Made by a program: the position numbers and the translations under genes
Notes under the pieces: generated by a model
What the model was told of the DNA's origin: nothing
Databases searched by the model: none
The model's input: the letters and a program-made list of their open reading frames with translations, nothing else
Assembly: GCA_048617235.1 (NCBI GenBank)
Contig: JBMCHT010000003.1
Location: 17,958-81,957 of the forward strand
Direction: 5' to 3'
DNA length: 64,000 nucleotides
DNA from: Patescibacteria group bacterium
GTDB lineage: Bacteria; Patescibacteriota; Minisyncoccia; Phycocordibacterales; XYD1-FULL-46-19
Shown: positions 131 to 38,680 of the stretch, one piece after another
Position numbering within the stretch: position 1 is the first letter of the stretch
Layout: the number at the start of each line of letters is the position of its first letter

Positions 131-895
131 TTAAGCTAATTTTAAAGCTTTATTAATTGAATAATCTCCGGCCTGTAGTCTAATTAATCGACTTAAAACA
201 ACCGGCGCTCCTGTTTTAATCTCCATAGACTGAGTTAAACCCCTAACATAAAATCCAGCCGAAGTATTTAAACGAACTTTAAGAAGCGGCCATAAACATT
301 GATTAAATTCTTTCTCTTTTTTTTGCCAAGACAATAATATTTCTGTTTGTCTAAATCCCGGTTTTACTAACTTAATAATCTGTTTTACTTGTTTAAATAA
401 TTCTAAACCACTAATTTGACTTTCTGTTAAAAAATCTAAACTATAAAGACTAACTTCTTTACCTTTTTTGTTACTGCCGGCTAAACGAGGGGAAGAATAT
501 TTTGGATATTCTTGGAAAAAAGAACCAATTAAAGATTTGAGTTTTTCTTTTTCATTTTCTAAAGCAACGGCAATAGTAGAAAAATTATTTAAACAACCCA
601 ATAAATCTCCGGTATCGGTTGAGCAACCAAAAATAAATTCTGCTTCATAAGTTTTATCCAAATTTAAAAACTGTTCCCGTTTTAGATTAGCTCGACCTAC
701 TAAAACCGGCATCACTCCTTCGGCTAAAGGATCCAAGCGACCGGCATAAGATAATTTTTCTTTTTCCAGTTCCGGTTTTAATCGGCGTAATCGTTCCAAA
801 GTCTCCAAAGGAGTTAAGCCTAAAGGTTTATAAACGGCAATTACTTCATCTTTATTACTCTGATAACTGAGAATCATCTGCTGGTGAGGTATCAT
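131..895 (-). CDS. truB: tRNA pseudouridine(55) synthase TruB
   Basis: Motif YAGRLDPLAEGVMPV matches the TruB catalytic-Asp motif. The ORF track gives 131..940, but the start was moved to an internal Met (MIPHQQ) to limit overlap with the ftsH 3' end, so the start is uncertain. Confidence 0.8.
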   Translation of the reverse strand: MIPHQQMILSYQSNKDEVIAVYKPLGLTPLETLERLRRLKPELEKEKLSYAGRLDPLAEGVMPVLVGRANLKREQFLNLDKTYEAEFIFGCSTDTGDLLGCLNNFSTIAVALENEKEKLKSLIGSFFQEYPKYSSPRLAGSNKKGKEVSLYSLDFLTESQISGLELFKQVKQIIKLVKPGFRQTEILLSWQKKEKEFNQCLWPLLKVRLNTSAGFYVRGLTQSMEIKTGAPVVLSRLIRLQAGDYSINKALKLA

Positions 896-2804
896 CTTTC
901 TCAATTTGGCTCTCGGGTCTTTTTTTAATGGGAATTTCATAATCGGTTAACAATTTTTCAAACTCTACTCTTTCTATGGTTTCTTTTTCTATTAAGAGAG
1001 AGGACAATTTAGCTAAAGCTTGTTTGTTTTCAATCAAAACTTTTTGAGCTCGTTTTAAGGCTTCTTGCATAATAACGGATACCTCTTCATCCACCAAAGC
1101 TCTGGTAGATTCAGCTGTTAATTTATCTGCCGACATCGCTCCAGTTACCGGATCAGAAACATGCCGAGCCAAATCTATCGGCCCCACTTTTTCACTCATA
1201 CCATAACGAGTTACCATACTACGAGCCAAATTAGTGGATACTTGGATATCATTAGAAGCGCCGGTGGTAATATCTCCGAATATCATTTGTTCGGTGGCAT
1301 AACCGGCCAAAGAAACAGCGATATCGTCCAAAAATTCTTTCTTGGAATTTAACTTTTTATCTTCAAACGGTAATTTTAAAGTATAACCGGCCGCATGACC
1401 GCGAGAAATAATAGATACTTTATGAACCGGATCGGCTGCTGGTAAAACCGAAGCCACCAAAGCATGCCCCATTTCATGGTAAGCGGTGATTTCCTTTTCT
1501 TTTTTGGATAAAATATGGCTTTTACGCTCCGGACCAAGCATTACCTTTTCCACACTGTGATAAAGATCATTTTGAGTAATTTCTTTCCGATTATTCCGAG
1601 CAGCCAAAATAGCAGCTTCATTCATTAAATTAGCCAAATCGGCTCCGGAAAAACCGGGAGTCCGTTCAGCCACTTGGCGTAAATCCACCCCAGCTGTCAA
1701 AGGTTTCTTCCCGGCATGAATCTTTAAAATTTCTTCTCGATCATTAATATCCGGTTGATCTAAAATTATTCGACGATCAAATCTACCCGGTCGCAACAGG
1801 GCCGGGTCTAAAACATCCGGTCGATTAGTGGCTGCCATCACAATCAACTTTTGATTAGGTTCAAACCCGTCCATTTCCACCAAAATCTGATTCAAAGTTT
1901 GTTCTCTTTCATCGTTACCACCACCCATGCCGGATCCTCGATGCCGACCAATGGCATCAATTTCATCTATAAAAATTATAGCCGGAGCCGCTTTTTTAGC
2001 CATTTTAAACAAATCTCTGGTTCGAGAGGCACCCACTCCAACAAACATTTCCACAAATTCCGAACCGGATAAATAAAAGAAAGGCACTCCGGCTTCTCCG
2101 GCTACCGCCCTGGCTAATAATGTTTTTCCGGTTCCCGGAGCCCCCATTAAAAGAACTCCTTTGGGAATTTTAGCTCCGATATCTAAAAACTTTTTCGGAT
2201 TACATAAAAAGTCCACCACTTCCTTCAATTCTTCTTTAGCTTCTTTGACTCCGGCCACATCTTTAAATAAAACTCTTTGATTTTTATCTTTAGGATCAAT
2301 AATTCGGGCTCGCGACTGGCCAAAAGTAAAAGCCTGCATACTGGATCCTTTAATTTGCCGAGTAATAAACCAAATCAAAAGAATTAAAAACAAAAGTGGC
2401 ACCAAAAAAGGTAAAATATTTAGAGCCCAAAAGGCAGCTCCGGTTTGGCCTTGAGGATTAATATTAACCGCCGATAAATCCTCCCCGCTTAAACCAAAGG
2501 CTGATAAACTCTGCAATAGTGATTGATCTGTTTCTTTACGACTAACCAGTTCTTCTTCCGCTGTTGTTGTTATCTCTAATTTATCTCCCCTGATAGTTAT
2601 AGCTTCTACTTGACCGGCAGAAACCAAACCGGCTAATTCGGATAAATTAATTTCTTCCGGCACCTCTCGCTCCATCCAAGAAATATAAATCATGGAGGCA
2701 GCCAACAAAAAAACAACAATCAATAAAATTTGACCACCAAACTGTTGCCATAATTGTTGACTATTGGTTGATTTAATAAATTTTGGTTTTTTCTTTTTTT
2801 TCAT
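855..2804 (-). CDS. ftsH: ATP-dependent zinc metalloprotease FtsH
   Basis: N-terminal TM helices, AAA+ Walker A ([23 protein letters not shown]), second region of homology, zinc motif HEMGHAL. 649 aa. Confidence 0.95.
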
Positions 2805-3066
2805 AATCTATAAAAGCTTGGTTTAATAAAAGATTTTGGCAAAATAGAAATCCGGCATTCGAGCCGGTTTTTGTTTAAATTAAACCGTAAACCGGTAAAA
2901 GTCAATTACTATTCTTCGATTTCTGTTTTTTCTTTATCTTGAGAACCAAAACGAAAAGAATGAACAACAAAAACCAAAGCGGTTATCAGTAAAACAAAAG
3001 AGATAATTATTAAAAGCCAAGTAATCAACATGAGGCTATTATAACAAAAAAAGAAACAAAAATTAA

Positions 3067-3104
3067 CCCCGTTGGTTGACTGAAAACAACCGACGGGGTT
3101 TTCC
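3067..3104 (-). terminator. Stem-loop (CCCCGTTGGTTG...CAACCGACGGGG) flanked by T-runs on both strands; likely terminator for the small GC-island ORF
   Basis: Inverted repeat with one G-U position, followed by TTTT on plus and a T-rich tract on minus. Confidence 0.45.
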
Positions 3105-3110
3105 GACTCC

Positions 3111-3377
3111 TTATTCTTCGAAAAGAATGGAGTCGGGAGAGTTTAACTGAAATACCTTAGCCCAAACGGAGCCAAGGACTTGAGTCTTGGCCGGTCCGAA
3201 AACCAACCGGCCGGAGACCTCTCTTTTCCACATCCCCCTACTAACCACAGCAAAGCCATGGTCAGTCAACCAGTTGACCACCTCCTCTTCTGAGGAGAAG
3301 AGGCCAACGATCAACCTTTTAACCGGTCTCTCACCAACCCCTCCGCCTACAAACCCCAGTAAAAAAACACCAAACAC
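3111..3377 (-). CDS. Hypothetical small protein with N-terminal TM helix, on GC-rich island
   Basis: ORF with GC-richer composition than the flanks. A perfect SD AAAGGAGGTGA sits 8 nt upstream of an internal GTG (the ORF track gives 3111..3386). No recognised domain. Confidence 0.35.
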   Translation of the reverse strand: MFGVFLLGFVGGGVGERPVKRLIVGLFSSEEEVVNWLTDHGFAVVSRGMWKREVSGRLVFGPAKTQVLGSVWAKVFQLNSPDSILFEE

Positions 3378-3544
3378 TATAATCACCTCCTTTCTGGATC
3401 AGTGTTAACTAATCAGATAATATAATAAAATAATGTTTTAGTCAAATTTGATGAAGACTACAGAACGATTTCAGAACGAGGAAGTGGGTGGAATGCTTTA
3501 AGTATCCAGCGTTTACGCTTAATCAAATTGAGGTATTTTTACTT

Positions 3545-3585
3545 AGAATATAAAAAGAGCCGCCATCTCAAGATGACGGCTCTGG
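3545..3585 (-). terminator. Intrinsic terminator after pyrE
   Basis: On the minus strand: AGAGCCGTCATC-TTGA-GATGGCGGCTCT hairpin followed by TTTTTATATT, immediately 3' of the pyrE stop. Confidence 0.6.
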
Positions 3586-3598
3586 GTAGAGTCGCTCT

Positions 3599-4228
3599 TT
3601 ACTTCCGCGCAAGGAACTCGCGCCCCTTGCCGACATCAATGTTGATCGGAACGTCTTGCTCGCAAAGCGGACAAGTTGCCTCGTCGTATGCGTCGAACTC
3701 CACGTTCACGAGAGCGGTGAGCTTCGAAACATCGGCCACGTCTTGTGGCCTAATTCCTCCACGGTTGCAGAGGACGCCGAGACCGATGACGTTGCCACCG
3801 ATTTCTCGCGTAGCTTCAATCACCTTTTTGGCGGAGCCACCGGTAGTGAGAACATCCTCTACAACCAGAACGTTCTTGCCGGCAACAATCTTGTCGTAGC
3901 CTCGTTTGATGATGAAGTCTCCTCTGCCCTCAGACTTCTCGGCGTAAACCCCAAGCACCTCGTGAGCCTTCATCTCTGAGAGATGATACGCCGTCCACTG
4001 GGAGAGAATCACGCCGCCGATTGCCGGAGCGATGACGACCTCCACATTGTCGTCCGTGAACCGTTCAGCAATTGAAAGGCAGAGGCGTGACGTTTCCGCG
4101 GTGTGCGGATAAACCGCATCCTTGTTGACATACGCCGTGCCATGTTTACCGGACGTGTAGACTATGTGGCTATCGGTGATGACTGCACCGACCTTGCCTA
4201 GGATTTGCAGGACATCTTGCTCGTTCAT
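3599..4228 (-). CDS. pyrE: Orotate phosphoribosyltransferase (type I PRTase)
   Basis: PRPP-binding motif VLVVEDVLTTGGS. Length 209 aa. Sits directly after pyrF. GGAGG SD 4-5 nt upstream. GC-rich codon usage. Confidence 0.75.
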   Translation of the reverse strand: MNEQDVLQILGKVGAVITDSHIVYTSGKHGTAYVNKDAVYPHTAETSRLCLSIAERFTDDNVEVVIAPAIGGVILSQWTAYHLSEMKAHEVLGVYAEKSEGRGDFIIKRGYDKIVAGKNVLVVEDVLTTGGSAKKVIEATREIGGNVIGLGVLCNRGGIRPQDVADVSKLTALVNVEFDAYDEATCPLCEQDVPINIDVGKGREFLARK

Positions 4229-4929
4229 ACCACCACCTCCATAGCGTTCGGAGAAATCTCCTCCTCGATCTGACAGAGCGCATCCACCGGATCAGTTGCC
4301 TGCGTGATTTGCCGTCCGACAACGAGATGAGTTGAGCCGGAAGCGATCGCGCCCGCCGGTGTATCCACTCGTTTTTGATCATCGGTTGCCTTGCCTGGAG
4401 AACGAACACCCGGCGTGATGAACTTCAGTCCCTGAAGTTCGGACCTCTTGGCGAGAATCCCGACCTCTTTGGGCGAACACACGATGCCGTGAACGCCCGC
4501 GAGTTTCGCGAGACGTGCGAGGTAAAGCACTTCTGCCTTGGACGGTTGTCCATGCAAAAGGTGCGCCTGTTCCTCGCCAAGCGAAGTGAGAACCGTGATT
4601 GCGTAGATCTCCGACGGTCCCGCTTCCACCGCAGCCATCATCATTTCGATCTCGCCAGAGGCGTGAACGGTGAGAATATCGGCTCCGGATTCGGCGATTG
4701 CCTTCGCACGGAGCTTAACGGTGTTCGGAATGTCGTGAAGCTTGGCGTCCACCCAGATGCGACGGGCGCCTGCGTCCCGAAGTCGTTGAACGACATCAGG
4801 TCCTTGCTGATCGAACACGTTGTGAATCTTGATGGCATAAACCCAATCACCAACCTTGGAGGCAAGCTCCAAGCACTGATCGAGGCTCAGCTCATCGACC
4901 GCCAGAACGATACGATTTGAGTCAGACAT
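4225..4929 (-). CDS. pyrF: Orotidine 5'-phosphate decarboxylase
   Basis: Catalytic motif VDAKLHDIPNTV (D-x-K-x-x-D-I-P-N-T). 234 aa. SD GAAAGGAG 9 nt upstream. GC-rich. Confidence 0.8.
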   Translation of the reverse strand: MSDSNRIVLAVDELSLDQCLELASKVGDWVYAIKIHNVFDQQGPDVVQRLRDAGARRIWVDAKLHDIPNTVKLRAKAIAESGADILTVHASGEIEMMMAAVEAGPSEIYAITVLTSLGEEQAHLLHGQPSKAEVLYLARLAKLAGVHGIVCSPKEVGILAKRSELQGLKFITPGVRSPGKATDDQKRVDTPAGAIASGSTHLVVGRQITQATDPVDALCQIEEEISPNAMEVVV

Positions 4930-5059
4930 AGTAGAGTCTCCTTTCTTGGTTGTGTCAATTTAAGCTCAACAATAAAGCTTAATCCAAGGTCACATTAACA
5001 CATCAGTTAAAAAAAACAATTCAATTCGATTCTTGTCATCTCTTGCAACCAAAACACAA

Positions 5060-5090
5060 AACAGCCCCAATGTTTACGGGCTGTTTTTTA
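5060..5090 (-). terminator. Hairpin CAGCCC-N10-GGGCTG with T-runs on both strands; terminator downstream of tmRNA
   Basis: Inverted repeat at 5062-5083 followed by TTTTTT (plus) and a T-rich tract (minus), immediately 3' of the ssrA 3' end. Confidence 0.5.
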
Positions 5091-5102
5091 GTAAATACGA
5101 TG

Positions 5103-5483
5103 TGGAGATGGCGGGAATCGAACCCGCGTCTGGTAAAGATTTAACAATTTCTCTACAGGTATAGTCTGTTTACAAGTTTTAAATCTAAACGGTTATTAAC
5201 AAACAAAATCCATTCAGATCGAGTTCCTTAATCTTAAACGTTAAGCAGAACCAATTAACGCTCCAGTTCGGTTTATATGACACCCATCAGATCCGGCCGA
5301 ACTCCTGATCAGATAGACGCCGGCTTAGGCTAAAGCGTAGGCCGGAGTAAAATACGGTGAAACCACCGATTTTACCTTTTGAGATAAGTTTGCACTTATA
5401 CAGTGTGTCGGAGTTTTTCGAGTTATCCGACATTCTCGACCTGCCAATTGCTAAAATCTACACCATCAAGGCCGATCATCCCC
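5103..5483 (-). ncRNA. ssrA: tmRNA (SsrA)
   Basis: Minus-strand transcript starts GGGGATGATCGGCC and ends GCGGGTTCGATTCCCGCCATCTCCA, the tRNA-like acceptor/T-arm halves. An internal reading frame ends ...P-A-Y-A-L-A-stop (GCC TAC GCT TTA GCC TAA), the classic tag ending. Located directly downstream of smpB. CCA not encoded. Confidence 0.8.
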
Positions 5484-5488
5484 ATTAA

Positions 5489-5935
5489 TTATTTATATCT
5501 ATTTTTCAAAGTTCGACTAATTTCTCTTTGGGCTTCGCGTTTTTTAATCACTTCTCGTTTATCATGTTCTTTTTTACCACGAGCCACCGCCAATTCCAAT
5601 TTCAACCACCTACCCGAATTATACAGCTTAAGTGGGATTGCTGTCAATCCCGGTCGAGATAAGTGTCCTATTAATTCTTTTATTTCCGCTTTTTGTAAAA
5701 GTAATTTCCGATCTCGAGCCGGATCATATTCTAAAGTATTATTATTCGGCTGGTAAGCCGGAACCTGAGCCCCGATTAAAAACGGTTGTCCGGCTTTAAT
5801 GGTAATATAAGAACCGGCTAGAGAACCATGTCCTTGGCGAATAGATTTAACCTCTTGACCGGTCAATTCCAAACCGGCCCGGTATTTCTCTAACGGTTCA
5901 TAATTAAACAAAGCCTTTTTATTAACAATTGCCAT
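5489..5935 (-). CDS. smpB: SsrA-binding protein SmpB
   Basis: Conserved SmpB core (LELTGQEVKSIRQG...SLAGSYI) and C-terminal basic tail. Start set at MAIVNKK. Sits next to tmRNA. Confidence 0.9.
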   Translation of the reverse strand: MAIVNKKALFNYEPLEKYRAGLELTGQEVKSIRQGHGSLAGSYITIKAGQPFLIGAQVPAYQPNNNTLEYDPARDRKLLLQKAEIKELIGHLSRPGLTAIPLKLYNSGRWLKLELAVARGKKEHDKREVIKKREAQREISRTLKNRYK

Positions 5936-6048
5936 AATGTTTAAGTGTAACAAAAGTCAGCTAAAACGGAAATCTAAATATTGGGGTTGACCTTTGAGTT
6001 GAAATCAGTTACCATTTAACCACTTGCCACTTTAGTGGCCGGTTTTAA

Positions 6049-7147: not shown

Positions 7148-8518
7148 TTAATCTAAAATCACCTTTTGTCCCGGATCGGGAGCTATAGCCTTAATTCCGA
7201 GATAATCGTTAATTCTCTGAGCTAAAGCCCAAGAAGATTTTGGCTCCCCCATAACCGTAAAAACAGTTTGGAGACTTTCAGTGGCCTCAGCTACTAAATT
7301 TAATAAACCGGCCGAATCGGCATGGGCTGAATAACCTGAAATAGTTTCTATTCTAGCCGCTACCGGCACTTCAGTACCTAAAATTTTAACCACCTTGACT
7401 CCATCTTGTAAAACTCTCCCTAAACTGCCGGCCGCTTGGTAACCAACCAAAAGCAGGGTATTTTTTTTATCCGGTAAAAACATTTTTTCATGATGAATAA
7501 TCCGACCACCATTGGACATACCGGAGCCGGCAATAATAATTTTACGAGCCGGAGCCGAAGCAATCGCTTTAGATTCATCAGTAGTCTTAGTTAAATGTAA
7601 TTGCGGAAAATGAAAAATATTTCTTTCAGTGGCCAGATCCTCAACTGATTCTTTTAAATAATTTTTATAACGACGATAAACTTCAGTCACCGCTATGGCC
7701 AACGGTGAATCCAAAAAAACCGGCACCAAAGGAATCTCCGACCGAGCCATTAAGCCGGAGATTTCAAAAAGTAATTGTTGTGTTCTTTCAATTGAAAAAG
7801 CCGGAATCATTAAAGTCCCCCCTTGATTTAAAGTTTCTTTAATTATTCTTTGTAAATGCTCTCGTCTATGTTGACGATCTTCATGTTCCCTGTCTCCATA
7901 AACACTTTCCATTATTAGATAATCAGCACCAACAACTGAATCGACATCCCCCAATAAAGGCGCCGGTGAGCTACCTAAATCTCCGGTAAAAAATATTCGA
8001 CGCTCAAAGCCTTCTATGGCAAAAATACTAGAACCCAAGATATGCCCGGCATTTTTTTGCTCCACTTCCAAACTGCCAATGGTAAATTTTTCATAATAGT
8101 CTTTGGTTTGCCATAAAGACATAGTTTGTTCCACATCCGCCAAAGAATAAAAAGGATCTTGACCGGTTCGTTTGGCTTCTTTAGACATCACCCCAATACT
8201 GTCTGTCATTATTAATTCGGCAATATCCTTAGTTGGCGGAGTAGATATAATTTGTCCTCGAAAACCATCTTTAACCAATTTGGGAATTCGGCCAACATGA
8301 TCCAAATGACCATGAGTGATTAATAAAAAATCTATAGTGGACGGATCATAAGGAAAATCTGCTCGGTTATCTTCTTCACAAACCTTGCCCCCTTGAAACA
8401 AACCACAGTCCACCAAAACCCGTAGCCCCTCCGGGCTTTCCAATAAAAAATTAGCCCCGGTTACCGAACCGACTCCGCCGTGAAAAGTTAAGGAAAATTT
8501 TTGCTTAGTGTTTTTCAT
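7148..8518 (-). CDS. MBL-fold metallo-hydrolase, beta-CASP family ribonuclease (RNase J / CPSF-like)
   Basis: HxHxDH motif (ITHGHLDHVGRIP) and FTGDLG. Length and C-terminal region fit a beta-CASP RNA-processing nuclease. Start set at MKNTKQ. Confidence 0.7.
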   Translation of the reverse strand: MKNTKQKFSLTFHGGVGSVTGANFLLESPEGLRVLVDCGLFQGGKVCEEDNRADFPYDPSTIDFLLITHGHLDHVGRIPKLVKDGFRGQIISTPPTKDIAELIMTDSIGVMSKEAKRTGQDPFYSLADVEQTMSLWQTKDYYEKFTIGSLEVEQKNAGHILGSSIFAIEGFERRIFFTGDLGSSPAPLLGDVDSVVGADYLIMESVYGDREHEDRQHRREHLQRIIKETLNQGGTLMIPAFSIERTQQLLFEISGLMARSEIPLVPVFLDSPLAIAVTEVYRRYKNYLKESVEDLATERNIFHFPQLHLTKTTDESKAIASAPARKIIIAGSGMSNGGRIIHHEKMFLPDKKNTLLLVGYQAAGSLGRVLQDGVKVVKILGTEVPVAARIETISGYSAHADSAGLLNLVAEATESLQTVFTVMGEPKSSWALAQRINDYLGIKAIAPDPGQKVILD

Positions 8519-8957
8519 TTTTAGCCGGTTGTTTATAAATATTAAAAGGGGTATACCAAAAAGCCAAGCCAGCAACCAAACCACCAACCGTATCCATAAA
8601 AAGATCGGTCACGGTATCCAACCAGCCCACTTGCAAAGTTTCCAGGGTTTTAAAAACAGGATAACCGGGCCAGATCTTATAGGCTCCGAATTCAAATAAC
8701 TCCCACAAGCCACCGATAAAAAAAGAAAAACCAACGGCTATTAACATTACAATTAAAAATTTAGGATAAACTTTATGGATATCAAAATAAAAAGATAAAA
8801 CGGCTGTAGCTACAGTCGCTCCGGCTATTAAATGGACTATTAAATCAAACCACCACCAACGCCAATATAAATAATATTCAAAAGCAAAATAATTAAGACC
8901 GGCCACCAATACCAGACCTAATAACACTCCCCACCAAACCGGTCTTTTAAATGTCAT
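8505..8957 (-). CDS. Hypothetical integral membrane protein (4-5 TM helices, Trp-rich)
   Basis: Hydrophobic helices throughout. No recognisable motif. Confidence 0.5.
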   Translation of the reverse strand: MTFKRPVWWGVLLGLVLVAGLNYFAFEYYLYWRWWWFDLIVHLIAGATVATAVLSFYFDIHKVYPKFLIVMLIAVGFSFFIGGLWELFEFGAYKIWPGYPVFKTLETLQVGWLDTVTDLFMDTVGGLVAGLAFWYTPFNIYKQPAKNEKH

Positions 8958-9198
8958 TAAAAGTATTTTAGACTATTAAATTATCTATCGCAAACAAATA
9001 ATCACCCAAGATCCGGGTATTTCAAACCAAATCAAGGATGATCATTTAAAGACTGCTTGGGATACTACCCTAGGATAAATCCAAGTGGGTGTCCGCAACC
9101 TTAAACCACGGCTTAAAGTAATATAGGACTCCCTAAGGGTAAAAACGATCTAGATAATATCCAAGCAGTCCATCTCCATTATACACCAAAAAAAATAT

Positions 9199-9594
9199 CT
9201 ACTCAATTCTGATCTGATGCAAAATTTCCTTAATTTTAACCAAAGCTTGACCGGGCATAATCTCGGTTTTTAACCAGTAATCAATAGCTCCTTTTTTAAT
9301 ATACTTATCTTTAATTCCTTCTTCATATAAATTACTTAAAATAACCACCGGCACATCTTTGGTATCTTTGTCTTTTTTTAAAAACTTCAACACTTGACCG
9401 CCATCCATTTCGGCCATTACCAAATCCAAAAGGATAATATCCGGCTCTCCGGCTTTGGCAATAGCCAAACCGTCTTGACCATTGGTGGCTATCATTAAAT
9501 CCACCGAATCATCCAAATCAAAAAGAGTTTTATAAATATGAACTTGATCGGGATCATCTTCAATTAAAAGAACTCTATCTAATAGTTTTTGCAT
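9199..9594 (-). CDS. Single-domain response regulator (CheY-like receiver)
   Basis: LLIEDDPD...ILLDLVMAEMDG...VVILSNL receiver signature. 131 aa, no output domain. Confidence 0.85.
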   Translation of the reverse strand: MQKLLDRVLLIEDDPDQVHIYKTLFDLDDSVDLMIATNGQDGLAIAKAGEPDIILLDLVMAEMDGGQVLKFLKKDKDTKDVPVVILSNLYEEGIKDKYIKKGAIDYWLKTEIMPGQALVKIKEILHQIRIE

Positions 9595-9598
9595 AAAA

Positions 9599-11800
9599 TT
9601 ATTGTACCAAAGGAAAACTTAAAATGAAAATGGAGCCTTGACCGGCTTCGGATTCAAAACTAATTTGACCTCCCGGCTGGGCTTCGGTTATTTTTAAAAC
9701 TATAAACAAACCCAAACCCGAGCCATCGGTGTATAAATCAACCGCTTGGCGGCCACGAGCAAATTTTTTAAATATTTTATCTTGATCCTCAGCCGGAATC
9801 CCAATTCCGGTATCGCTAATTTTTATCATAACCCTACCCTTATCTTCTGTTAAATCAACCGTTACTTGACCGACCGGTGTGTAAATTAAGGCATTATCTA
9901 TAACATAAGCCAGGGCTTGTTTTAGATAATCGGCATGAGCTTTAATCTTTAACTCCTCAGACGGTTTATTAAATACCAATTCCAAATCCTTATCTTGAGC
10001 TTTAGTTGAGTTGGCTTTAACCACCTCGGCAACCAAATTAACTACATCAACTACTGCCAAGCGTTCCTCCCCCAAAGAAAAATGCCCGCTATCTATTTCT
10101 GAAGCTAATAAAATATCTCGAATTATCTGTTCCAATTTCCTGGATTTATAATAAATATTATCTATAAATTGTTTTTGTTTTTCCGGCGGTAGTTTGTCTA
10201 TACTACCTTCTTTAAACATAGAAATGGTTCCCAAGATAACCGAAACCGGGGTTCGTAATTGATGAGAAGCAATATTTAAAAATTCCGAACGCATTTTTAA
10301 CAATTTTTCCAGATGTTTTGTTTTAGCTCGTAATTCCGATGTTTGTTCATCCACCCTCTCCTGTAGGGTTTGATTAAACAATCTAATTTGCTCATATAAT
10401 AAGGAATTATCTATGGCAATACCGGCCGAAGCCGCCAAGGTTTGCAGCAACATAATATCTTCTTGAGAAAAAGGATTGCCGGAAGCTTTCTCACCCAAGA
10501 CCACCAAACCCACCAAGCGCGAACCGGAGATTAAAGGCATTAAACCGGCGGCGGGTATTTTCTCCAGATTATTTTTCCAAATTTCCGCAGATTGACTGCC
10601 GTCGGCTATATCTTGTTGGTAATTAATTAGCTCATCAGCTATCAATATTTGATTATGTTTTTCCAAAAATTCTCTTGCAACTTGAGTAAAAACCAATTGT
10701 TTAATATTTAAATCCTCAGCTTCAAAATTAAGTTGGAAAACTTGATGATCTTTATCCGCCTCTTTATTTAAAATTATTAAACCAGCTTTGGTTAAATCAA
10801 ATTCCCTATAAACAGTTTTAACGATTAAATCCGCTATTTGTTGTAAATCATTAAGATAATTTAATTCTCGAGCCAAACGATTAACGGATTCTTGAACCGA
10901 ATATAAAGAAACAAAAAAATATTTATTGGCCCAATCTTGAATCAGATTATAGAAATTATATAACAGGAAAACAAAAAACGGAGCCATTAACAAACCGGTT
11001 AAATAGGAAGCCGGAGTAAAAATTCCACCAAAAAAATAAATATAAAACCAAGCTATTAAATAAAAAAGGATATAAGTAAAAGCAGCCGCCAGAACATATA
11101 AATAAAGCCGTCTGAAGACGACTCTAATATCCATTAAACGGTAACGGAGGATGGCGTAGGCGACCGCCACAACATAAAAAGAAACCAAGATATTACCTAT
11201 AGGTAAAATTGGGATATCATACCAAAGAAAATAATTAGTCGAACCACCGGTAAAACCCACTATCATTCCCACTAATAAATATTTTATCTGACTTTTCACT
11301 ACTCCGGATAGCCGAGAATGATATTTGAATAAATAATAAGTGGCCAGCACGACATAGCCAAACCAAATAGGTAAAAAAATATTGAATAAGATCCCGGGCA
11401 CCGGCCAGAAATCAAACATTGCTCTGGAAGTAATTCCCGTAATAAAATGATTACTAAATAAATTTAAAACTAAAAACAGAAAAAATAAAAAATAACTACC
11501 CAATATAAAAAGTTTATAACTTTTGTTTATTTTTAATAAAACAAATACAAAATGTAAGTAAGCTACCGAGATAAAAATAGCCCAACTCATAAAAAATCTA
11601 GACCAAAACAAAGCAGTTTGAGCATCGGTTGACAATTGCCAGAAAAAATAACCCAGACTCCAACCGGCTATCAAAAAAGAAAACAAAGCAAAAGTTATAT
11701 ATAAAAGACGTTTAGGATTACGCAATAAAACAAAAAAACCCAAAACCAAACTGGTAATGAAATTTATTAAAGCTGATAAGGTGTAAAAAGTAAACAACAT
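9599..11800 (-). CDS. Sensor histidine kinase (multi-TM N-terminal sensor, GAF, HisKA, HATPase_c)
   Basis: About 9 TM helices, a GAF-like middle region, H-box ASHQLRTPVSVI, G-boxes DTGIGIP...GSGLGL. Confidence 0.88.
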   Translation of the reverse strand: MLFTFYTLSALINFITSLVLGFFVLLRNPKRLLYITFALFSFLIAGWSLGYFFWQLSTDAQTALFWSRFFMSWAIFISVAYLHFVFVLLKINKSYKLFILGSYFLFFLFLVLNLFSNHFITGITSRAMFDFWPVPGILFNIFLPIWFGYVVLATYYLFKYHSRLSGVVKSQIKYLLVGMIVGFTGGSTNYFLWYDIPILPIGNILVSFYVVAVAYAILRYRLMDIRVVFRRLYLYVLAAAFTYILFYLIAWFYIYFFGGIFTPASYLTGLLMAPFFVFLLYNFYNLIQDWANKYFFVSLYSVQESVNRLARELNYLNDLQQIADLIVKTVYREFDLTKAGLIILNKEADKDHQVFQLNFEAEDLNIKQLVFTQVAREFLEKHNQILIADELINYQQDIADGSQSAEIWKNNLEKIPAAGLMPLISGSRLVGLVVLGEKASGNPFSQEDIMLLQTLAASAGIAIDNSLLYEQIRLFNQTLQERVDEQTSELRAKTKHLEKLLKMRSEFLNIASHQLRTPVSVILGTISMFKEGSIDKLPPEKQKQFIDNIYYKSRKLEQIIRDILLASEIDSGHFSLGEERLAVVDVVNLVAEVVKANSTKAQDKDLELVFNKPSEELKIKAHADYLKQALAYVIDNALIYTPVGQVTVDLTEDKGRVMIKISDTGIGIPAEDQDKIFKKFARGRQAVDLYTDGSGLGLFIVLKITEAQPGGQISFESEAGQGSIFILSFPLVQ

Positions 11801-11850
11801 ACAAAACCGGTGGAATGTTATTATTATAACACGCCACCGGCTGATGAAAA

Positions 11851-12786
11851 CTATTCAACCTGCCCCACAGCTACGCCGTGAATTTTGTGCGGTTCGTAAA
11901 CCAGTCGAACCGACACAAAACCGGATCGAAGGAGGATTCTCGCCAAACGATCCGGCCAACGATAAATCATCGGCCAGTCAATCACTTGGTACAAGAACCA
12001 TCGCTCACTGTTGGGAGCAATGTTGCAGGTCAGGAAAACTCCCCCCGGCGGCAAGGCCGAGTGAATTTGACTCAGCAGTTTCTCCGCCTTGTCATCAGGC
12101 AGATAATCCAGCAACCCCATCATCTCTACGATGTGAGGAGCGAATTCCCGACTGATTTCCAAGACATTGGAAACCGTCTCCCGGCGAACCTCCACTTGAG
12201 AGGAAACACCGGAATCTTGAGCCAACCCTTGAGCAAAGTCCAGGGCTGTCTGGTCACGATCAACCAACAGCACTCGAACCGTTACCCCTTTGGCTTTGAA
12301 ATCTGCCACCGTCTTAATGACCGACTCCGCCGACCCGCAAGCTAGTGAGAGAATCCGAATTTCCGATTCCCGTCGAAATCGATTGACTGCCTCCGCCAGC
12401 TCGGCACAAGCAATTTTGTATCGATTGCGAACCGCCTGGGCGTTTCGCATACCGATCCAAAAATCGTCAACCAAATTTCCTGAGAAATCGTGGTTATAGA
12501 TCAAGTGAAGCGCCCTCCAAGAAGCCGCTCCTTGACGGATGGCTAAAGTCTTTCGACCCCAGCCATCAAACCACGAAGAATTATAGATCGGGGAACCCCA
12601 ACCCATAACCCTATAGACAGTCTTCTTGAAGAAAGTCACCAGCGCCAACACCATCATCACCGGAGCCACCAGATGAAACCAGAGACTCTGTTCAAACTCC
12701 AACCGATCGATTGGTCGAAGTTTTTCTCTTTTGACTTCCCTCACCGAACAATTCGGTAAGGAAGCCATTTCTAATTTATAAGACAT
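11851..12786 (-). CDS. Putative class I SAM-dependent methyltransferase with N-terminal TM helix, on GC-rich island
   Basis: Motif I-like ILSLACGSAE. GC-rich. SD GAGAGGAGG 6 nt before the internal ATG at 12786 (MSYKLEMASL); the ORF track begins at 12873. Confidence 0.5.
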   Translation of the reverse strand: MSYKLEMASLPNCSVREVKREKLRPIDRLEFEQSLWFHLVAPVMMVLALVTFFKKTVYRVMGWGSPIYNSSWFDGWGRKTLAIRQGAASWRALHLIYNHDFSGNLVDDFWIGMRNAQAVRNRYKIACAELAEAVNRFRRESEIRILSLACGSAESVIKTVADFKAKGVTVRVLLVDRDQTALDFAQGLAQDSGVSSQVEVRRETVSNVLEISREFAPHIVEMMGLLDYLPDDKAEKLLSQIHSALPPGGVFLTCNIAPNSERWFLYQVIDWPMIYRWPDRLARILLRSGFVSVRLVYEPHKIHGVAVGQVE

Positions 12787-12915
12787 AGGAGTCCTCCTCT
12801 CAAGGTTGGTTTTTTGTTGACAAACACCTAGACCACTTGAAGTATAACACATATTAAAAAATAAATCAAACAAAAGAAAAAGCGTCTATTGGTTACCCCA
12901 ACAAACGCTTTGAAA

Positions 12916-14067
12916 TCAAAAACTGAAAGACATGCCGACAGTCAAAATTTCCGAAGAAAATTTTACCCTCGGATGCCCGGCTCGAACCGAACCTTGGCCA
13001 TAAGCGACAAAAATTGACCGCTCAAGCTTTGATCCAATTTTTGTCAACTGAAAAGCCAAATTCCAACCGGACATATCGGGAATCAGGGTACTGACTCGAT
13101 TATCCGGCACCGCTTGAGTCATGTAATTCCAACCCAGACTCATTCGCCAGTTATCGTTCAGCTCTGCCTTCATTCCCAAGTGATATGTCCGATTGTCTTT
13201 CCAGCCCAAAGGTAAACCAATGGCCGGCAAACGATTAAAATCCAATCGCAATTCTCGATTACGACCGGAATAACCGTAATGAGCCCAATCAGCCAACAGG
13301 ATTATCCGAGGAGATATTCGGTATTCCAGTCCTACCTGGAGCCTATCAGGAAAAGTGTATTGGCTGTCAAACCGATCACTTATCCCTAAAGGTAGATTGG
13401 TCCGACCGGACAAGTTGGCAGTTTGAGTTGAAGTGTAAGAAAGCCCCAATCTCCATTGTGAAGACATTTGGTATTGCAATCCCACTTGCCAACCCAAACC
13501 AAAACCGATAGCCCCACTCTCGGCTTTTAACGGCCACCTAATGCCGGCTAACTCCAGCGGTGCTTCATAGACAAGCTCAGCTTGTCCGACATGAACAGTC
13601 AAACCCAAGGCCAAGCGTTGACTGGCTTGCCAACCAAAGCCGATTGAAGCATTTACCAGAGATAATTCAGACCTGGTATTCATGAACCACTGTTCGGGAT
13701 TTCTATCAAATTCCGCTCCCAAACCGTAAGGAACACAAATACCACCGGCCAAAACTAACCTATCCGTTAGTGGTAAAACCCCGGAAACAAAAGGTAGATC
13801 ATACGGTTCTCCCCCGGACCGACGATTACCCTTTTGACCTCGGTAATGAAAACGAGCATCAACTCGTTCCCATCCAACCATTAAAGCTTTTGATTGAGCT
13901 CCGGCCCAAGCAGCCGGATTGTAGTAGTGACCACCGAAAGGATCAGCAGTCGCCACATAAGCGCCACTGGTACCGATAGCCGGTCCCACTCCGCCTACTC
14001 GATTAAGCCCGCCGGCTTCAGCTATCATCGGGAAGATAGCCAAAACCAAAACTATCAAGAATCTCAC
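12916..14067 (-). CDS. Outer-membrane beta-barrel transporter, FadL/OmpP1/TodX family
   Basis: GTG start with SD AAGGAGAG. Signal peptide MRFLIVLVLAIFPMIAEA. N-terminal hatch with NPA motif (HYYNPAAWAG). Alternating amphipathic beta-strands. C-terminal ...GMSFSF aromatic terminus. GC-rich. Confidence 0.7.
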   Translation of the reverse strand: MRFLIVLVLAIFPMIAEAGGLNRVGGVGPAIGTSGAYVATADPFGGHYYNPAAWAGAQSKALMVGWERVDARFHYRGQKGNRRSGGEPYDLPFVSGVLPLTDRLVLAGGICVPYGLGAEFDRNPEQWFMNTRSELSLVNASIGFGWQASQRLALGLTVHVGQAELVYEAPLELAGIRWPLKAESGAIGFGLGWQVGLQYQMSSQWRLGLSYTSTQTANLSGRTNLPLGISDRFDSQYTFPDRLQVGLEYRISPRIILLADWAHYGYSGRNRELRLDFNRLPAIGLPLGWKDNRTYHLGMKAELNDNWRMSLGWNYMTQAVPDNRVSTLIPDMSGWNLAFQLTKIGSKLERSIFVAYGQGSVRAGHPRVKFSSEILTVGMSFSF

Positions 14068-14144: not shown

Positions 14145-14741
14145 CTAGGCCTCATCCACCCCAAAACGTTTGTAGTTATAAATCGGGCTATCACCAAACC
14201 ATAATTTTATTTCATGTTCAGCTTCTTCCGGAGTTTCGGAAGCATGAACCAAATTCATAACCGCTCTTTTTTCTTTATTGGCCAACAAAGGTGAGTCAGC
14301 TGAAAAATCTCCGCGAATAGTTCCCATATCCGCCTGATAAGGCAAAGTCGGTCCAGCAATCTTTCGAACCATGTCTATGGCGTGAATACCTTGAATCACC
14401 ATTCTAACCATCGGAGCCGAGGTCATATAATCAACAATCCAAGTTCTAACCTCTTTACCTATTTCCGAAGGATCAGCGGTGCCAATTTCTTTTTCAGGAT
14501 CATAGCCGTATTTTTCGTAAGTACCCAAAGTTTTCTCTCCCAAACGAGCAATCCACTTTTCAGACTTAGGATAATGATTATCTATTTGTTCATAAGTCGG
14601 TTGAAACATTTCCAAAGCCACAATTTTTAAATCTCGCTGTTCTATTCTTTTTATTATCTCTCCCACCAAACCTTTACGAACACCATCGGGCTTAACCATT
14701 AAAAATGTTTTTTCTTCTTTAGGATTATATGACATAAGCAA
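14145..14741 (-). CDS. ndk: Nucleoside diphosphate kinase (long form, 198 aa)
   Basis: KTFLMVKPDGVRKGLVGEII N-terminal NDK motif. Extra inserts relative to the canonical ~140-aa enzyme. Confidence 0.8.
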   Translation of the reverse strand: MLMSYNPKEEKTFLMVKPDGVRKGLVGEIIKRIEQRDLKIVALEMFQPTYEQIDNHYPKSEKWIARLGEKTLGTYEKYGYDPEKEIGTADPSEIGKEVRTWIVDYMTSAPMVRMVIQGIHAIDMVRKIAGPTLPYQADMGTIRGDFSADSPLLANKEKRAVMNLVHASETPEEAEHEIKLWFGDSPIYNYKRFGVDEA

Positions 14742-34963: not shown

Positions 34964-36442
34964 TTAATAAAACCACCAAGACCATTGAGGGTTATACTTA
35001 ACCGATAAATATCGACTAACAAACCATAAAAGCGGATAAAAAATAAAAACCGACCAGACCGGTAAACGCCAACTAACTTCCGGTGTTAAAATTCCCATCA
35101 TAGCCGATACTCGCAAAACCGCTTCCAACCATAACCAGGAAATGGTAGCCGGCAACAAAGCTAAACCGGTACCAATCATATTCAAAAAGGCCAACAAAGC
35201 CAGAGCCGGTAAAATAAATACCATCCAAGGAGATAATAAAATATTAGAAAATGGTGCCAACCAAGATAAATCTCCGGTCCAAATTAAAAGAAGAGGCATA
35301 ACTGCCACCTGAGCGGCTATAGAAACCGCCATTATTTCAAATATAATTTTAGTTTTTTGCCCTACCGAAAAAACAGCTAATAAACAATTAACAATTATTG
35401 GAGTTAAAACCAAAACTCCCCAAGTGGCCGCTACCGATAACTGAAAACCGATATCAAAAATAATTACCGGCTTAATCACCGTCATTAGAAAAACAGCATA
35501 AAATAAAGCTCGAAGACCGGCATAAGGCCGTCCCCACCAACCGGCCATCATAGCCAAAGATACCATTAAACCGGCTCGAATGGCCGAAGTGGCCGGACCG
35601 GTCATCAAAATAAAAAAACCGACAAGAATTAAAACAAAAAAAGGCCTCCAACCGGTTGTTATAAAATAAGAAGCTAAAACCGCCACCAAACCGGCCACCA
35701 AGCCCACATGGTAACCGGACACCACGGTTAAATGAATCAAGCCGGCTTGTTGTAAATGCTTTCTAATCTCTGAAGCAAAACCGGATCTATCTCCCATTAA
35801 AACCCCGGTCGCTAAAGAAGCATGGGGCTCAGGTAAACCGGCTTTCAAGCCACCGATTATTTTTTGTCGCCACCAAGCCAAAACACTAATTCTCTCCGTT
35901 TTTTTAATAATCTCTAAATTATAAGCATAAAGACGACCACTTAAATCTCTGGTTCTTAAATAAGAATAATCATTAAAATCATTATCGGCAAAAGGCCGAA
36001 CCGGTGGCTGATAATAACCAATTATCTTAACCTTATCTCCTAACCTAACCACCGGATATAAATCCGCTTTAACCCAAAAATTAAAATTACTTCTTTTTTC
36101 TTTAATAATAAAAGATTGACCGGTTAAACCACGATCCGGAAAACCAATCACCTCTCCCTCCCATTGTCCTTGACCGGCTACTTGATCAGAAACCGGTAAA
36201 TACCAACTTAAACCAAAGGGATAATAACCCCAACCGCAAAAACCAAAGAAAAGAATCACCGACATAGTCATCAACCGGTGACCGGTTTTAATAAATACAC
36301 TTAGTCCGGCCAATAAACCAACAAGAGCCAAAAAAAGAAAACCAACAACAGAAGACTCTTCTAAATAACCGGCTGTTACCAAACCTAAAAACCAACCGCT
36401 AACAATAATTCCCAAGACAAATCTGGCTTGGATTTTAGTCAT
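34964..36442 (-). CDS. comEC: ComEC/Rec2 competence protein, membrane channel part (DUF4131 plus competence domain)
   Basis: Polytopic membrane protein with the conserved LTVVSGYHVGLVAG region of the competence domain. 492 aa, no MBL domain. Confidence 0.7.
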   Translation of the reverse strand: MTKIQARFVLGIIVSGWFLGLVTAGYLEESSVVGFLFLALVGLLAGLSVFIKTGHRLMTMSVILFFGFCGWGYYPFGLSWYLPVSDQVAGQGQWEGEVIGFPDRGLTGQSFIIKEKRSNFNFWVKADLYPVVRLGDKVKIIGYYQPPVRPFADNDFNDYSYLRTRDLSGRLYAYNLEIIKKTERISVLAWWRQKIIGGLKAGLPEPHASLATGVLMGDRSGFASEIRKHLQQAGLIHLTVVSGYHVGLVAGLVAVLASYFITTGWRPFFVLILVGFFILMTGPATSAIRAGLMVSLAMMAGWWGRPYAGLRALFYAVFLMTVIKPVIIFDIGFQLSVAATWGVLVLTPIIVNCLLAVFSVGQKTKIIFEIMAVSIAAQVAVMPLLLIWTGDLSWLAPFSNILLSPWMVFILPALALLAFLNMIGTGLALLPATISWLWLEAVLRVSAMMGILTPEVSWRLPVWSVFIFYPLLWFVSRYLSVKYNPQWSWWFY

Positions 36443-36445
36443 AAA

Positions 36446-36874
36446 TTAAGAACCTTGATCCATAGCCTGATTAGCTAAAGCATCAGCTTGAGCATTTTCA
36501 GATCGTGGTATATGAACAATTTTCATTTGTTTAAAATCCGACACTCTTAAATTCCACACCGCCATAAACCACGGCCAAAATTCCGGATCTTTTACCTGGT
36601 AATCTCCATTTAATTGTTTAACTATTAACTCCGAATCTAAATGCACCTCTATTGGAGTAACCCGCGCCCGAGCTGTCCCTAAAACTTTCTTCAAAGCCTG
36701 CAAAGCCATAACCAATGCTTGATACTCCGCTTGGTTGTTAGTAGTCTTCCCTAAAAATTTAGACAAAGTTTTTACTACCTGACCATCGGAATCTAAAATC
36801 ACCGCCCCGGCTCCGGCCGGACCGGGATTACCACGAGCCCCACCATCTGCATAAACTATATATTTATCTGCCAT
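36446..36874 (-). CDS. rnhA: Ribonuclease HI
   Basis: YADGGARGNPGPAGAG N-terminus; DSELIVKQ; C-terminal H...D catalytic residues. 142 aa. Confidence 0.88.
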   Translation of the reverse strand: MADKYIVYADGGARGNPGPAGAGAVILDSDGQVVKTLSKFLGKTTNNQAEYQALVMALQALKKVLGTARARVTPIEVHLDSELIVKQLNGDYQVKDPEFWPWFMAVWNLRVSDFKQMKIVHIPRSENAQADALANQAMDQGS

Positions 36875-36900
36875 AATTATTAAATTAACTTACAAACATT

Positions 36901-38637: not shown

Positions 38638-38680
38638 TTCTTTTGGATTGTCTGTAATTTAATGCTAAAATAGACCTATT

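Follow-up and report, generated by a model that had tools for sequence, protein, structure and literature searches.

Orotate phosphoribosyltransferase (OPRT) and orotidine-5'-phosphate (OMP) decarboxylase carry out the final two steps of UMP synthesis, in which orotate and PRPP yield OMP and then UMP, and pyr operons commonly pair pyrF with pyrE. The CPR bacteria, or Patescibacteria, are thought to rely on host organisms for their nucleotides. In Paceibacteria UMP synthesis is generally incomplete, yet conversion of UMP to CTP is possible (PMC9166423, PMC11608272). A terminal two-step module such as the one described here fits these partial pathways, but the two surveys do not describe pyrF-pyrE as a GC-rich exchanged cassette or as linked to tRNA or tmRNA genes (hereafter t(m)RNA genes). 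A literature search for pyrE, pyrF or orotate in CPR bacteria found nothing specific, and no description of a GC-rich, t(m)RNA-linked exchanged cassette.

Here we describe a pyrF-pyrE pair in a 64-kb stretch of patescibacterial DNA (64,000 nucleotides; the window). Its PyrF resembles the E. coli/Vibrio type and its PyrE the Thermus/Helicobacter type (TIGR01367), with the same folds and catalytic motifs. Unlike the pyrF and pyrE genes of the de novo pathway, the pair forms a stand-alone cassette with its own leader, and no other pyr gene was found among the 58 ORFs scanned in the 64 kb.

In its setting the pair is closest to the genomic islands found at ssrA and tRNA genes. It shares with them a foreign composition, an accessory metabolic cargo and a site directly behind the 3' end of ssrA, and in related genomes this cargo turns up beside a wide range of t(m)RNA genes. 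Unlike such islands, it measures only about 1.4 kb, has two genes and lacks an integrase, an att direct repeat and any mobility gene. As a small, compact transferable unit it also recalls integron cassettes and MITE-like cargo, and one relative (L022) is flanked by long inverted repeats. It differs from these in having its own leader with a putative promoter, and the window holds neither an attC-like site nor a flanking inverted repeat. An integron-cassette reading was rejected on account of the leader and the missing attC-like site.

We conclude, with a probability of about 0.78, that positions 3598-5016 are a self-contained pyrF-pyrE cassette that was gained horizontally from a GC-richer patescibacterium and placed 3' of the tmRNA gene.

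Gene content and layout of the locus

Both cassette genes are intact, lie on the minus strand and share 4 nt (ATGA; Table 1). In profile searches PyrF scores well above the cut-offs of PF00215 (159.3 bits, cut-off 27) and TIGR01740 (143.9 bits, cut-off 92.3) and marginally below that of NF001273 (191.6 bits, cut-off 193). It aligns with PDB 3ldv (E = 5e-34), conserving the motif DAKLHDIPNT. Both the catalytic Asp-x-Lys-x-x-Asp motif (VDAKLHDIPNT opposite LDLKFHDIPNT of 3ldv) and the phosphate-binding C-terminal Gly-Arg (VVGRQIT opposite VIGRPIT) are present. By these matches the product is a type 1 OMP decarboxylase, with predicted OMP-to-UMP activity.

PyrE has the type-I PRT fold by its match to PF00156 (43.7 bits, cut-off 26.3). 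Its best NCBIfam model is the Thermus-type OPRT TIGR01367, which it matches with 126.3 bits, under the equivalog cut-off of 150.25; the runner-up, TIGR00336, is far behind with only 48.5 bits. The best PDB match is the OPRT 4paw (E = 1.6e-14), to which the C-terminal CPLC motif aligns, as does the PRPP motif, VLVVEDVLTTGGS opposite ILVCEDIITTGKS. Because the TIGR01367 score lies below the equivalog cut-off, orotate is the putative substrate, proposed from family membership and from the coupling to pyrF through the 4-nt overlap. An earlier note on this DNA, made from the letters alone, had read the two ORFs as an OMP decarboxylase and an OPRT, and both ORFs, their family models and their catalytic motifs bear it out.

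Table 1. Features at and around the pyrF-pyrE cassette (positions in the window)
Feature	Position	Strand	Remarks
Host flank	855-3031	-	40-aa ORF 2909-3031 and ftsH 855-2804; ftsH GC3 0.315
Hairpin after small ORF	3065-3100	both	terminator-like on both strands; 14-nt arms, 93% complementary
Orphan small ORF	3111-3377	-	88 aa from GTG 3377, or 91 aa from 3386; GC3 0.54
AT-rich spacer	3387-3555	-	GC about 0.33
Intrinsic terminator of pyrF-pyrE	3556-3583	-	12-bp stem with 7 GC pairs, then TTTTTATATT
pyrE-type orotate phosphoribosyltransferase	3599-4228	-	209 aa; GC3 0.65; PF00156, TIGR01367
pyrF, orotidine-5'-phosphate decarboxylase	4225-4929	-	234 aa; GC3 0.61; PF00215, TIGR01740
Cassette leader	4930-5016	-	stem-loop 4958-4983 and AAAGGAG SD; transferred with the genes
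Hairpin and T-rich tract just 3' of ssrA	5061-5084	-	read from the sequence; likely ssrA terminator
ssrA (tmRNA)	5100-5483	-	ARAGORN; Rfam RF00023, 149.7 bits, full length 1-374
smpB	5489-5953		next to ssrA; PF01668 match

The cassette lies on the side of the ssrA 3' end, which marks the probable site of insertion. pyrF starts at 4929, 171 nt downstream of the ssrA end at 5100, and the homology with other cassettes begins at 5016, so that a unique AT-rich stretch of 83 nt parts ssrA from the cassette. That a tmRNA gene abuts the unit had gone unremarked in the earlier reading of the sequence. The hairpin at 5061-5084 was unreported by the terminator pattern scan because its loop is 10 nt long, and it lies outside the DNA common to other cassettes.

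Homology of the leader to two related loci, L002 and L014, extends to 5016 (blastn), and its hairpin (ATTAAGC...GCTTAAAT) is kept in every close cassette copy; in the window copy, a compensatory exchange has turned one C-G pair into U-A, and another change yields a wobble pair. The leader folds with -20 kcal/mol (z = -1.9). It matches no Rfam family, the sole match in 3380-5110 being a terminator (E = 0.2). A sigma-70 scan of the leader, 5' of pyrF, returned no promoter site, and we infer that the pyrF promoter lies within it.

At the other end, homology to L002 and L014 stops at 3598-3608, and the terminator at 3556-3583 is thus local, its sequence not being common to the other cassette copies. 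In the spacer beyond, a promoter-like site (TTGACT-17-TATTAT, 3445-3417) precedes the small ORF, and the GC-rich stretch ends at the hairpin at 3065-3100. Two terminators had been proposed to delimit the unit. Both hairpins exist, one with a 12-bp stem and T-run and the other with 14-nt arms, but the one at 3065-3100 lies outside the transferred cassette. Nor does a single GC-rich island that takes in the small ORF survive: the DNA common to other genomes is 3598-5016 only, and the spacer at 3387-3598 is AT-rich.

The small ORF encodes a protein with a hydrophobic N-terminus, which is modelled by AF2 from the single sequence with a pLDDT of 57. Apart from itself, a word-index search of 5.8 billion clusters and a full HMMER search of 1.84 billion representatives gave only one spurious match, to a repeat protein. 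The ORF matches nothing in Pfam or NCBIfam and is absent at all related loci examined. It is probably foreign too, and a separate acquisition from the cassette.

Composition and ribosome-binding sites

GC content is 0.55-0.60 over 3575-4850, compared to 0.27-0.38 in the flanks (150-nt windows). The GC3 check suggested earlier agrees: pyrF, pyrE and the small ORF (Table 1) stand against a median of 0.30 over the 73 ORFs of the window. The DNA is thus GC-richer than its surroundings, as the earlier note had claimed. It had also assigned a GGAGG-type Shine-Dalgarno (SD) site to each gene, and these are present: AAAGGAG 5' of pyrF, GGAGGTG for pyrE within the 3' end of pyrF, and AAAGGAGG 5' of the small ORF. 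Such sites are rare among host-like genes. AGGAG or GGAGG precedes 6 of the 7 ORFs with GC3 above 0.40, compared to 3 of the 66 host-like ORFs (Fisher p = 3e-6). The contrast of GC-rich, SD-bearing foreign genes with SD-poor host genes makes a simple marker of recent imports in such genomes.

Across genomes, the GC content of pyrF exceeds that of its flanks in 39 of 41 contexts, by the widest margin in AT-rich hosts and by a small one (+0.02 to +0.06) in most GC-rich ones.

Elsewhere in the 64-kb window we also observed two further GC-rich, SD-bearing islets, with unrelated functions.

Comparison with other Patescibacteria

The window cassette (3598-5016) is about 85% identical in DNA to those of L002 and L014, compared to 68% for ftsH with L014 (blastn). 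Protein identities show the same mismatch. For the pairwise comparisons of the window, L014 and L022, FtsH is 64, 55 and 55% identical, PyrF 89, 90 and 96% and PyrE 84, 84 and 93%; SmpB is 51% identical between lineages whose PyrF is 89-96% identical. PyrF is not unusually slow-evolving, because among L015, L017, L018 and L021 it is only 50-69% identical where FtsH is 90-92% identical.

Every named close homologue of PyrF or PyrE is patescibacterial. This, together with the incongruence with housekeeping genes, points to a GC-richer patescibacterium or a shared gene pool as the donor. The transfer is therefore one within Patescibacteria and not an import from another phylum. The earlier note had held that PyrE and PyrF phylogenies branching with the host lineage would speak against transfer. 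The outcome is divided: the proteins fall inside the host phylum, but they are incongruent with its housekeeping genes.

On the window branch, GC-to-AT substitutions outnumber AT-to-GC ones by 78 to 25, and a GC-to-AT excess is likewise seen in L002, L022 and L024. We rejected selection-maintained GC, since the substitutions go from GC to AT in every copy. The dN/dS of the window pyrF is 0.12-0.15 against other cassette copies; for the copies overall, dS is 0.4-0.7 and dN/dS 0.04-0.15. Based on these dS values the transfers are not very recent, and the dN/dS ratios and AT-biased substitutions indicate genes that look functional and drift towards host composition. Accordingly, the cassette is under purifying selection while its GC decays towards AT.

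Atypical composition and incongruence with housekeeping genes are thus found together. Horizontal acquisition, as the earlier note had proposed, is strongly supported by the composition and SD sites, the identity mismatch with FtsH, the AT-biased substitutions and the adjacency to tmRNA, but the acquired unit is smaller than was claimed.

Position next to t(m)RNA genes

The position of the window cassette directly 3' of a t(m)RNA gene recurs elsewhere. Of 52 distinct contexts, 12 have a t(m)RNA gene that is on the strand of pyrF and ends 69-210 nt upstream of it, compared to a background rate of 1.5-3.2% (P <= 7e-8), and nine different t(m)RNA genes are found among these 12.

We searched the loci for traces of mobility. 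An integrase domain is missing from all 58 window ORFs scanned, the island comprising pyrF, pyrE and the orphan ORF only, and no integrase lies just downstream of ten t(m)RNA-adjacent cassettes, where the genes are housekeeping ones. At 15 loci, the window and 14 relatives, direct repeats of the t(m)RNA 3' end were sought downstream of the cassette, and none stood out from shuffled sequences; the best match in the window scores 9, with a mean of 8.4 and a maximum of 13 in the shuffles. A repeat search of the window gave no direct-repeat family matching this end. A search for the t(m)RNA 3' end in inverted orientation gave a 15/18 match at 5025-5042 (uncorrected p of about 0.005), one of 17 nt in L023 and otherwise only terminator hairpins. 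No viral contig encodes a relative, and the cassette DNA has no match in plasmid or phage collections. Uptake machinery is encoded in the window: ComEC, RecJ, PilB, PilC and pilins.

Alternative explanations

The locus could be a decayed integrase-mediated genomic island at the ssrA 3' end, whose integrase and att repeats have since been lost. Foreign composition immediately 3' of the tmRNA gene and the recurrence of pyrF beside nine t(m)RNA identities are in line with this, as are the tRNA-Arg(CCT) of L002 and the tRNA-Arg(TCT) of L023, which have an identical 19-nt 3' end and trailer before the cassette, and a tyrosine recombinase gene that follows the cassette in L070-L072. Nonetheless, the L070 recombinase has an Xer-type domain pair and no tRNA gene is near that locus. 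Direct repeats are missing at all 15 loci, the window ORFs scanned hold no integrase, and housekeeping genes follow the ten t(m)RNA-adjacent cassettes. With only 70-210 nt between the t(m)RNA gene and the start of the cassette, there is no space for an integrase on that side, and we regard a decayed island as an unlikely origin. It appears improbable that the cassette is the cargo of a non-autonomous unit with inverted repeats at its borders, moved in trans, and that the window copy has lost its ends. Such a unit would account for L022, where inverted repeats of 47 nt (98% complementary) plus 23 nt, 1,630 nt apart, enclose the cassette, and for the fragments of the same repeated element that flank the cassette in L002, L014, L023 and L067. 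However, that element also occurs about 8 kb from the cassette in L014 and may therefore be an unrelated intergenic repeat. Neither the hairpin nor the flanking element has a copy anywhere in the 64-kb window, even at 3-5 mismatches, 14 other loci have no flanking inverted repeats save weak, partly low-complexity matches in L047 and L010, and no transposase was identified.

A native smpB-ssrA-pyrF locus, inherited vertically and owing its GC and SD sites to gene-specific selection or biased gene conversion, is largely refuted by the PyrF and FtsH identities and very improbable. The smpB/ssrA-pyrF neighbourhood does recur in Uhrbacteria-, Kaiserbacteria- and Taylorbacteria-like loci (PyrF 44-63% identity), and pyrF exceeds its flanks in GC in almost all contexts. 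But PyrF identities of 89-96% and DNA identity of about 85% across lineages with FtsH at 55-64% and SmpB at 51% speak against vertical descent, the GC-to-AT excess puts the composition off equilibrium and hence shows that it is not maintained, and the same window has its two other islets of unrelated function. Chimeric joining is known to occur at conserved t(m)RNA genes, and the source is a metagenome-assembled genome; a GC-rich fragment of another organism might thus have been joined at the tmRNA sequence during assembly or binning. Such an artefact is extremely improbable: both junctions lie within one contig with host-like DNA on either side, the stretch between ssrA and cassette is unique and AT-rich, and the window copy bears AT-biased substitutions of its own. 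L001, a separate Logan assembly that may share the sequencing run, has the order smpB-pyrF-pyrE-orf88-orf40-ftsH and reproduces the junctions.

We therefore favour horizontal gain of the cassette, and the window presents a clear, fairly ordinary horizontal transfer beside a tmRNA gene. A cassette from another, GC-richer patescibacterium would have entered the intergenic region directly 3' of the tmRNA gene, either by DNA uptake and recombination beside the conserved t(m)RNA gene or through an integrative element that has since decayed; a resident mobile element seems a less favoured entry route. The leader with its stem-loop and SD, pyrF and a translationally coupled pyrE would act as one expression cassette.

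Possible orotate salvage and circulation of the cassette

PyrE and PyrF may serve orotate salvage in an organism without the earlier pathway steps. The Pfam scan took in 58 ORFs of the 64-kb window, among them the larger members of the ribosomal-protein cluster, and left aside about 17 small ORFs that lie mostly there; it found no further pyr gene, in agreement with the earlier claim that the window has no other pyrimidine-biosynthesis gene. Conversion of scavenged orotate to UMP is plausible, and it fits the literature because Paceibacteria without full UMP synthesis keep the UMP-to-CTP conversion. A module that makes UMP from orotate and PRPP would cheaply cover part of the nucleotide dependence. 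Its exchange across lineages down to 55% FtsH identity suggests recurrent selection and substantial gene flow within the radiation.

A bolder and doubtful reading is that pyrF and its PRT gene form a promoter-to-terminator, integrase-less metabolic cassette that circulates in Patescibacteria, prefers sites downstream of t(m)RNA genes and is bracketed in some genomes by inverted repeats of about 70 nt. Such a cassette might spread through natural transformation, with conserved t(m)RNA sequence as the anchor for recombination, or with the help of a recombinase supplied in trans. If this is true, CPR bacteria would have a kind of mobile unit not described before, which carries cargo and is associated with t(m)RNA genes.

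Against a salvage-only reading stands that some Patescibacteria have prs-pyrE-pyrF-pyrD operons of native composition, as at L016.

Horizontal transfer of a pyrF-pyrE cassette

The pyrF-pyrE pair of the window is a small foreign metabolic islet, of an already-known type, at a tmRNA gene. It belongs to three minus-strand ORFs in the interval between ftsH and the smpB-ssrA pair, in a window of about 37% GC coded mostly on the minus strand.

Coordinates of the cassette, its surroundings and other features of the window
Feature	Position	Strand	Remarks
ftsH	855-2804		Flank of the cassette interval
Hairpin beyond the small ORF	3065-3100		Repeat search
Small ORF	3111-3386	-	91 aa; more likely 88 aa, GTG start at 3377
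Terminator after pyrE	3556-3583		12-bp stem and T-run
Cassette (pyrF-pyrE and leader)	3598-5016	-	
pyrE-type phosphoribosyltransferase	3599-4228	-	209 aa; ATGA overlap with pyrF
pyrF, predicted OMP decarboxylase	4225-4929	-	234 aa
Leader stem-loop	4958-4983		
Inverted copy of tmRNA 3' end	5025-5042		Imperfect, 15/18
ssrA (tmRNA)	5100-5483	-	Same orientation as pyrF; Rfam, full-length, 150 bits
smpB	5489-5953		Paired with ssrA
GC-rich islet	11851-14067	-	Methyltransferase and FadL/TodX-type protein
ndk	14145-14741		
Competence/type-IV-pilus block	34964-47257	-	
GC-rich ORF	53281-54342	+	353 aa

Horizontal acquisition, proposed in the earlier note, is correct. Window PyrF is 89% and 90% identical to PyrF of L014 and L022 (related loci from other genomes or metagenome contigs) and PyrE 84% in both comparisons, where FtsH is 64% and 55% identical; SmpB of the window and L014 shares 51%. 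L014 and L022 share 96% in PyrF, 93% in PyrE and 55% in FtsH. PyrF is not intrinsically slow-evolving, since in four Kaiserbacteria-like loci it is merely 50-69% identical where FtsH is 90-92% identical. All named close homologues of PyrF and PyrE are from Patescibacteria (including Zambryski-, Taylor-, Doudna-, Jorgensen-, Campbell-, Lipton-, Kaiser-, Yanofsky- and Uhrbacteria). Exchange has therefore taken place within the radiation, with other Patescibacteria as the donor pool. Close cassette copies show a synonymous divergence of 0.4-0.7 and dN/dS of 0.04-0.15, which indicates purifying selection on the genes and transfers that are not very recent.

The pair was also noted as GC-richer than its flanks, which holds: GC is 0.55-0.60 over 3575-4850 compared to 0.27-0.38 on either side. 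GC at third codon positions (GC3) is 0.61 in pyrF, 0.65 in pyrE and 0.54 in the small ORF, compared to a median of 0.30 over 73 non-overlapping window ORFs and 0.20-0.34 in the ribosomal-protein genes of the window. Window-specific substitutions are 78 GC-to-AT versus 25 AT-to-GC, and the copies in L002, L022 and L024 have an excess in the same direction; every copy is thus decaying from an ancestor richer in GC. The same excess argues against GC being held high by selection or biased gene conversion. In 39 of 41 distinct contexts pyrF has a higher GC than the DNA around it. The difference is only +0.02 to +0.06 in most hosts with 52-60% GC but reaches +0.19 in AT-rich ones, and the window is among the most extreme with +0.17. 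Such a distribution agrees with GC-rich Patescibacteria serving as a reservoir from which AT-rich lineages have repeatedly received the cassette.

The Shine-Dalgarno (SD) sites pointed out in the earlier note proved informative. Of the 7 ORFs with GC3 > 0.40, 6 are preceded by AGGAG or GGAGG, which is every real one (the seventh is a spurious ORF over tRNA genes). Among 66 host-like ORFs only 3 are (Fisher p = 3e-6), and their sites stand before doubtful internal starts. The host's own genes therefore mostly lack SD sites, whereas those of the GC-rich genes are canonical, and translation initiation in this organism appears to be largely SD-independent.

A second GC-rich, SD-bearing islet encodes a methyltransferase (GC3 0.52) and a FadL/TodX-type outer-membrane beta-barrel protein (PF03349, 94.9 bits; GC3 0.42). 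Such a transporter is odd here because Patescibacteria are presumed monoderm. A third GC-rich ORF (GC3 0.63, strong SD AAAGGAGG) has no match in Pfam and is probably another import.

Extent of the transferred unit

The terminator after pyrE and the hairpin beyond the small ORF are both present as described earlier. The transferred unit is smaller than the island drawn from them and takes in pyrF-pyrE with their leader. We compared related loci from species-representative genomes (20) and metagenome contigs (48 more). By blastn, L002 and L014 match the cassette at about 85% identity, and the limits of the match are exactly the pyrE stop codon and a point 87 nt ahead of the pyrF start. None of the loci compared shares the small ORF, the AT-rich spacer or the terminator downstream of pyrE. 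For the small ORF, neither a family nor a credible homologue was found among 5.8 billion clusters and 1.84 billion representatives, the sole return being a spurious repeat protein, and its structure model is poor. The leader stem-loop is found in every close cassette copy, with one compensatory and one wobble change in the window; no Rfam family matches it.

Position beside t(m)RNA genes and route of entry

The tmRNA gene adjoining the cassette, overlooked earlier, ends at 5100, 171 nt upstream of the pyrF start codon. After merging near-identical loci and keeping those with enough upstream sequence, 52 contexts could be evaluated. In 12 of them (the window and L002, L007, L008, L011, L012, L017, L023, L044, L047, L048 and L053) a same-strand tRNA or tmRNA gene, t(m)RNA for short, ends 69-210 nt upstream of pyrF. 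Four are tmRNA and the remainder tRNA-Arg(CCT), tRNA-Arg(TCT), Ala, Leu, Gln, Gly, Pro and Ser, making nine different genes across Patescibacteria. This adjacency is far above that of other genes (binomial P <= 7e-8): the background is 3.2% of all called genes in the same loci with pyrF included, and an estimated ~1.5% without it. Two further contexts have an opposite-strand tRNA gene near pyrF, and several further loci a tmRNA gene 1.5-2 kb away.

The inverted copy of the tmRNA 3' end stops 9 nt short of the cassette homology, and at the corresponding position L023 has a 17-nt inverted copy of its own tRNA-Arg 3' end and trailer; the significance of such copies is marginal after multiple testing. 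L002 (9826-9853) and L023 (877-905) carry directly before the cassette an identical 19-nt tRNA 3' end and trailer, CGAGGGCACCAAAATCTGA, which belongs to tRNA-Arg(CCT) in L002 and tRNA-Arg(TCT) in L023, in different genomes.

Location next to t(m)RNA genes is typical of integrative islands, and the cassette could alternatively derive from an integrative element that has since completely decayed. However, the features expected of such islands are missing: a search downstream of the cassette found no repeat of the t(m)RNA 3' end, none of the 58 window ORFs scanned is an integrase, and ten other t(m)RNA-adjacent cassettes are immediately followed by housekeeping genes. Searches of viral contigs and plasmid and phage collections found no cassette on a phage or plasmid. 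Our working view is that foreign DNA would have been taken up by the cell and then recombined into the permissive, sequence-conserved t(m)RNA neighbourhood. The window encodes a DNA-uptake apparatus (ComEC, RecJ, PilB-like T2SSE, PilC-like T2SSF and two pilins) in a block that also holds an RNase H gene and is consistent with natural DNA uptake.

Other flanks are found elsewhere. On either side of the L022 cassette (L022 4390-4454 and 6085-6154) lie inverted repeats made up of a 47-nt part (98% complementary) and a 23-nt part, and pieces of this repeated element are found next to the cassette in L002, L014, L023 and L067. The window has nothing of the kind, and 14 other loci show no flanking inverted repeats beyond weak, partly low-complexity matches in L047 and L010. 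A further copy lies at L014 14500-14690, and the loop of a GC hairpin in the element is inverted in L022 relative to L014. One Zambryskibacteria lineage has a Xer-like recombinase gene 3' of the cassette. The wider pattern might repay work: a GC-rich cassette of pyrF and a phosphoribosyltransferase (PRT) that lies beside t(m)RNA genes of many kinds with no integrase, and in occasional cases between inverted repeats.

Predicted function and pyrimidine context

In family profile searches PyrF matches PF00215 (159 bits) and TIGR01740 (144 bits, cut-off 92). It aligns with the solved enzyme 3ldv (E = 5e-34), the catalytic DxKxxD and the C-terminal GR phosphate-binding site are intact, and by homology it is an OMP decarboxylase. 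For PyrE the best model by far is TIGR01367 (Thermus/Helicobacter-type OPRT), at 126 bits below the equivalog cut-off of 150. Among solved structures it is closest to the OPRT 4paw (E = 1.6e-14); the PRPP loop and a C-terminal CPLC motif align, and the protein is a type-I PRT.

OPRT (EC 2.4.2.10) and OMP decarboxylase (EC 4.1.1.23) turn orotate and PRPP into UMP. The cassette would perform this conversion, as supported by the translational coupling of pyrF and pyrE (the ATGA overlap has an internal SD), the intact motifs, purifying selection and the dedicated terminator. As the earlier note had remarked, no other pyrimidine gene is found among the 58 window ORFs scanned, which include ndk, adk, larger ribosomal-cluster ORFs, glycolytic genes and the ComEC/RecJ/type-IV-pilus block. 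Surveys of Paceibacteria report complete UMP synthesis as missing and UMP-to-CTP conversion as kept (PMC9166423, PMC11608272). Salvage of exogenous orotate is a plausible candidate role, which depends on the rest of the genome.

On L016, a 1.2-Mb patescibacterial contig, a prs-pyrE-pyrF-pyrD-FMN reductase operon (8451-12526) looks native, with GC of 0.43-0.44 versus 0.42 for the host; the phylum therefore also has fuller versions that are native. At many loci the gene after pyrF, overlapping it by 4 nt, encodes not the window-type PyrE but a 244-aa protein (L005 10711-11445; L007 10696-11430). With its degenerate PRPP-loop-like motif, and unmatched in Pfam, this protein may be a divergent PRT partner.
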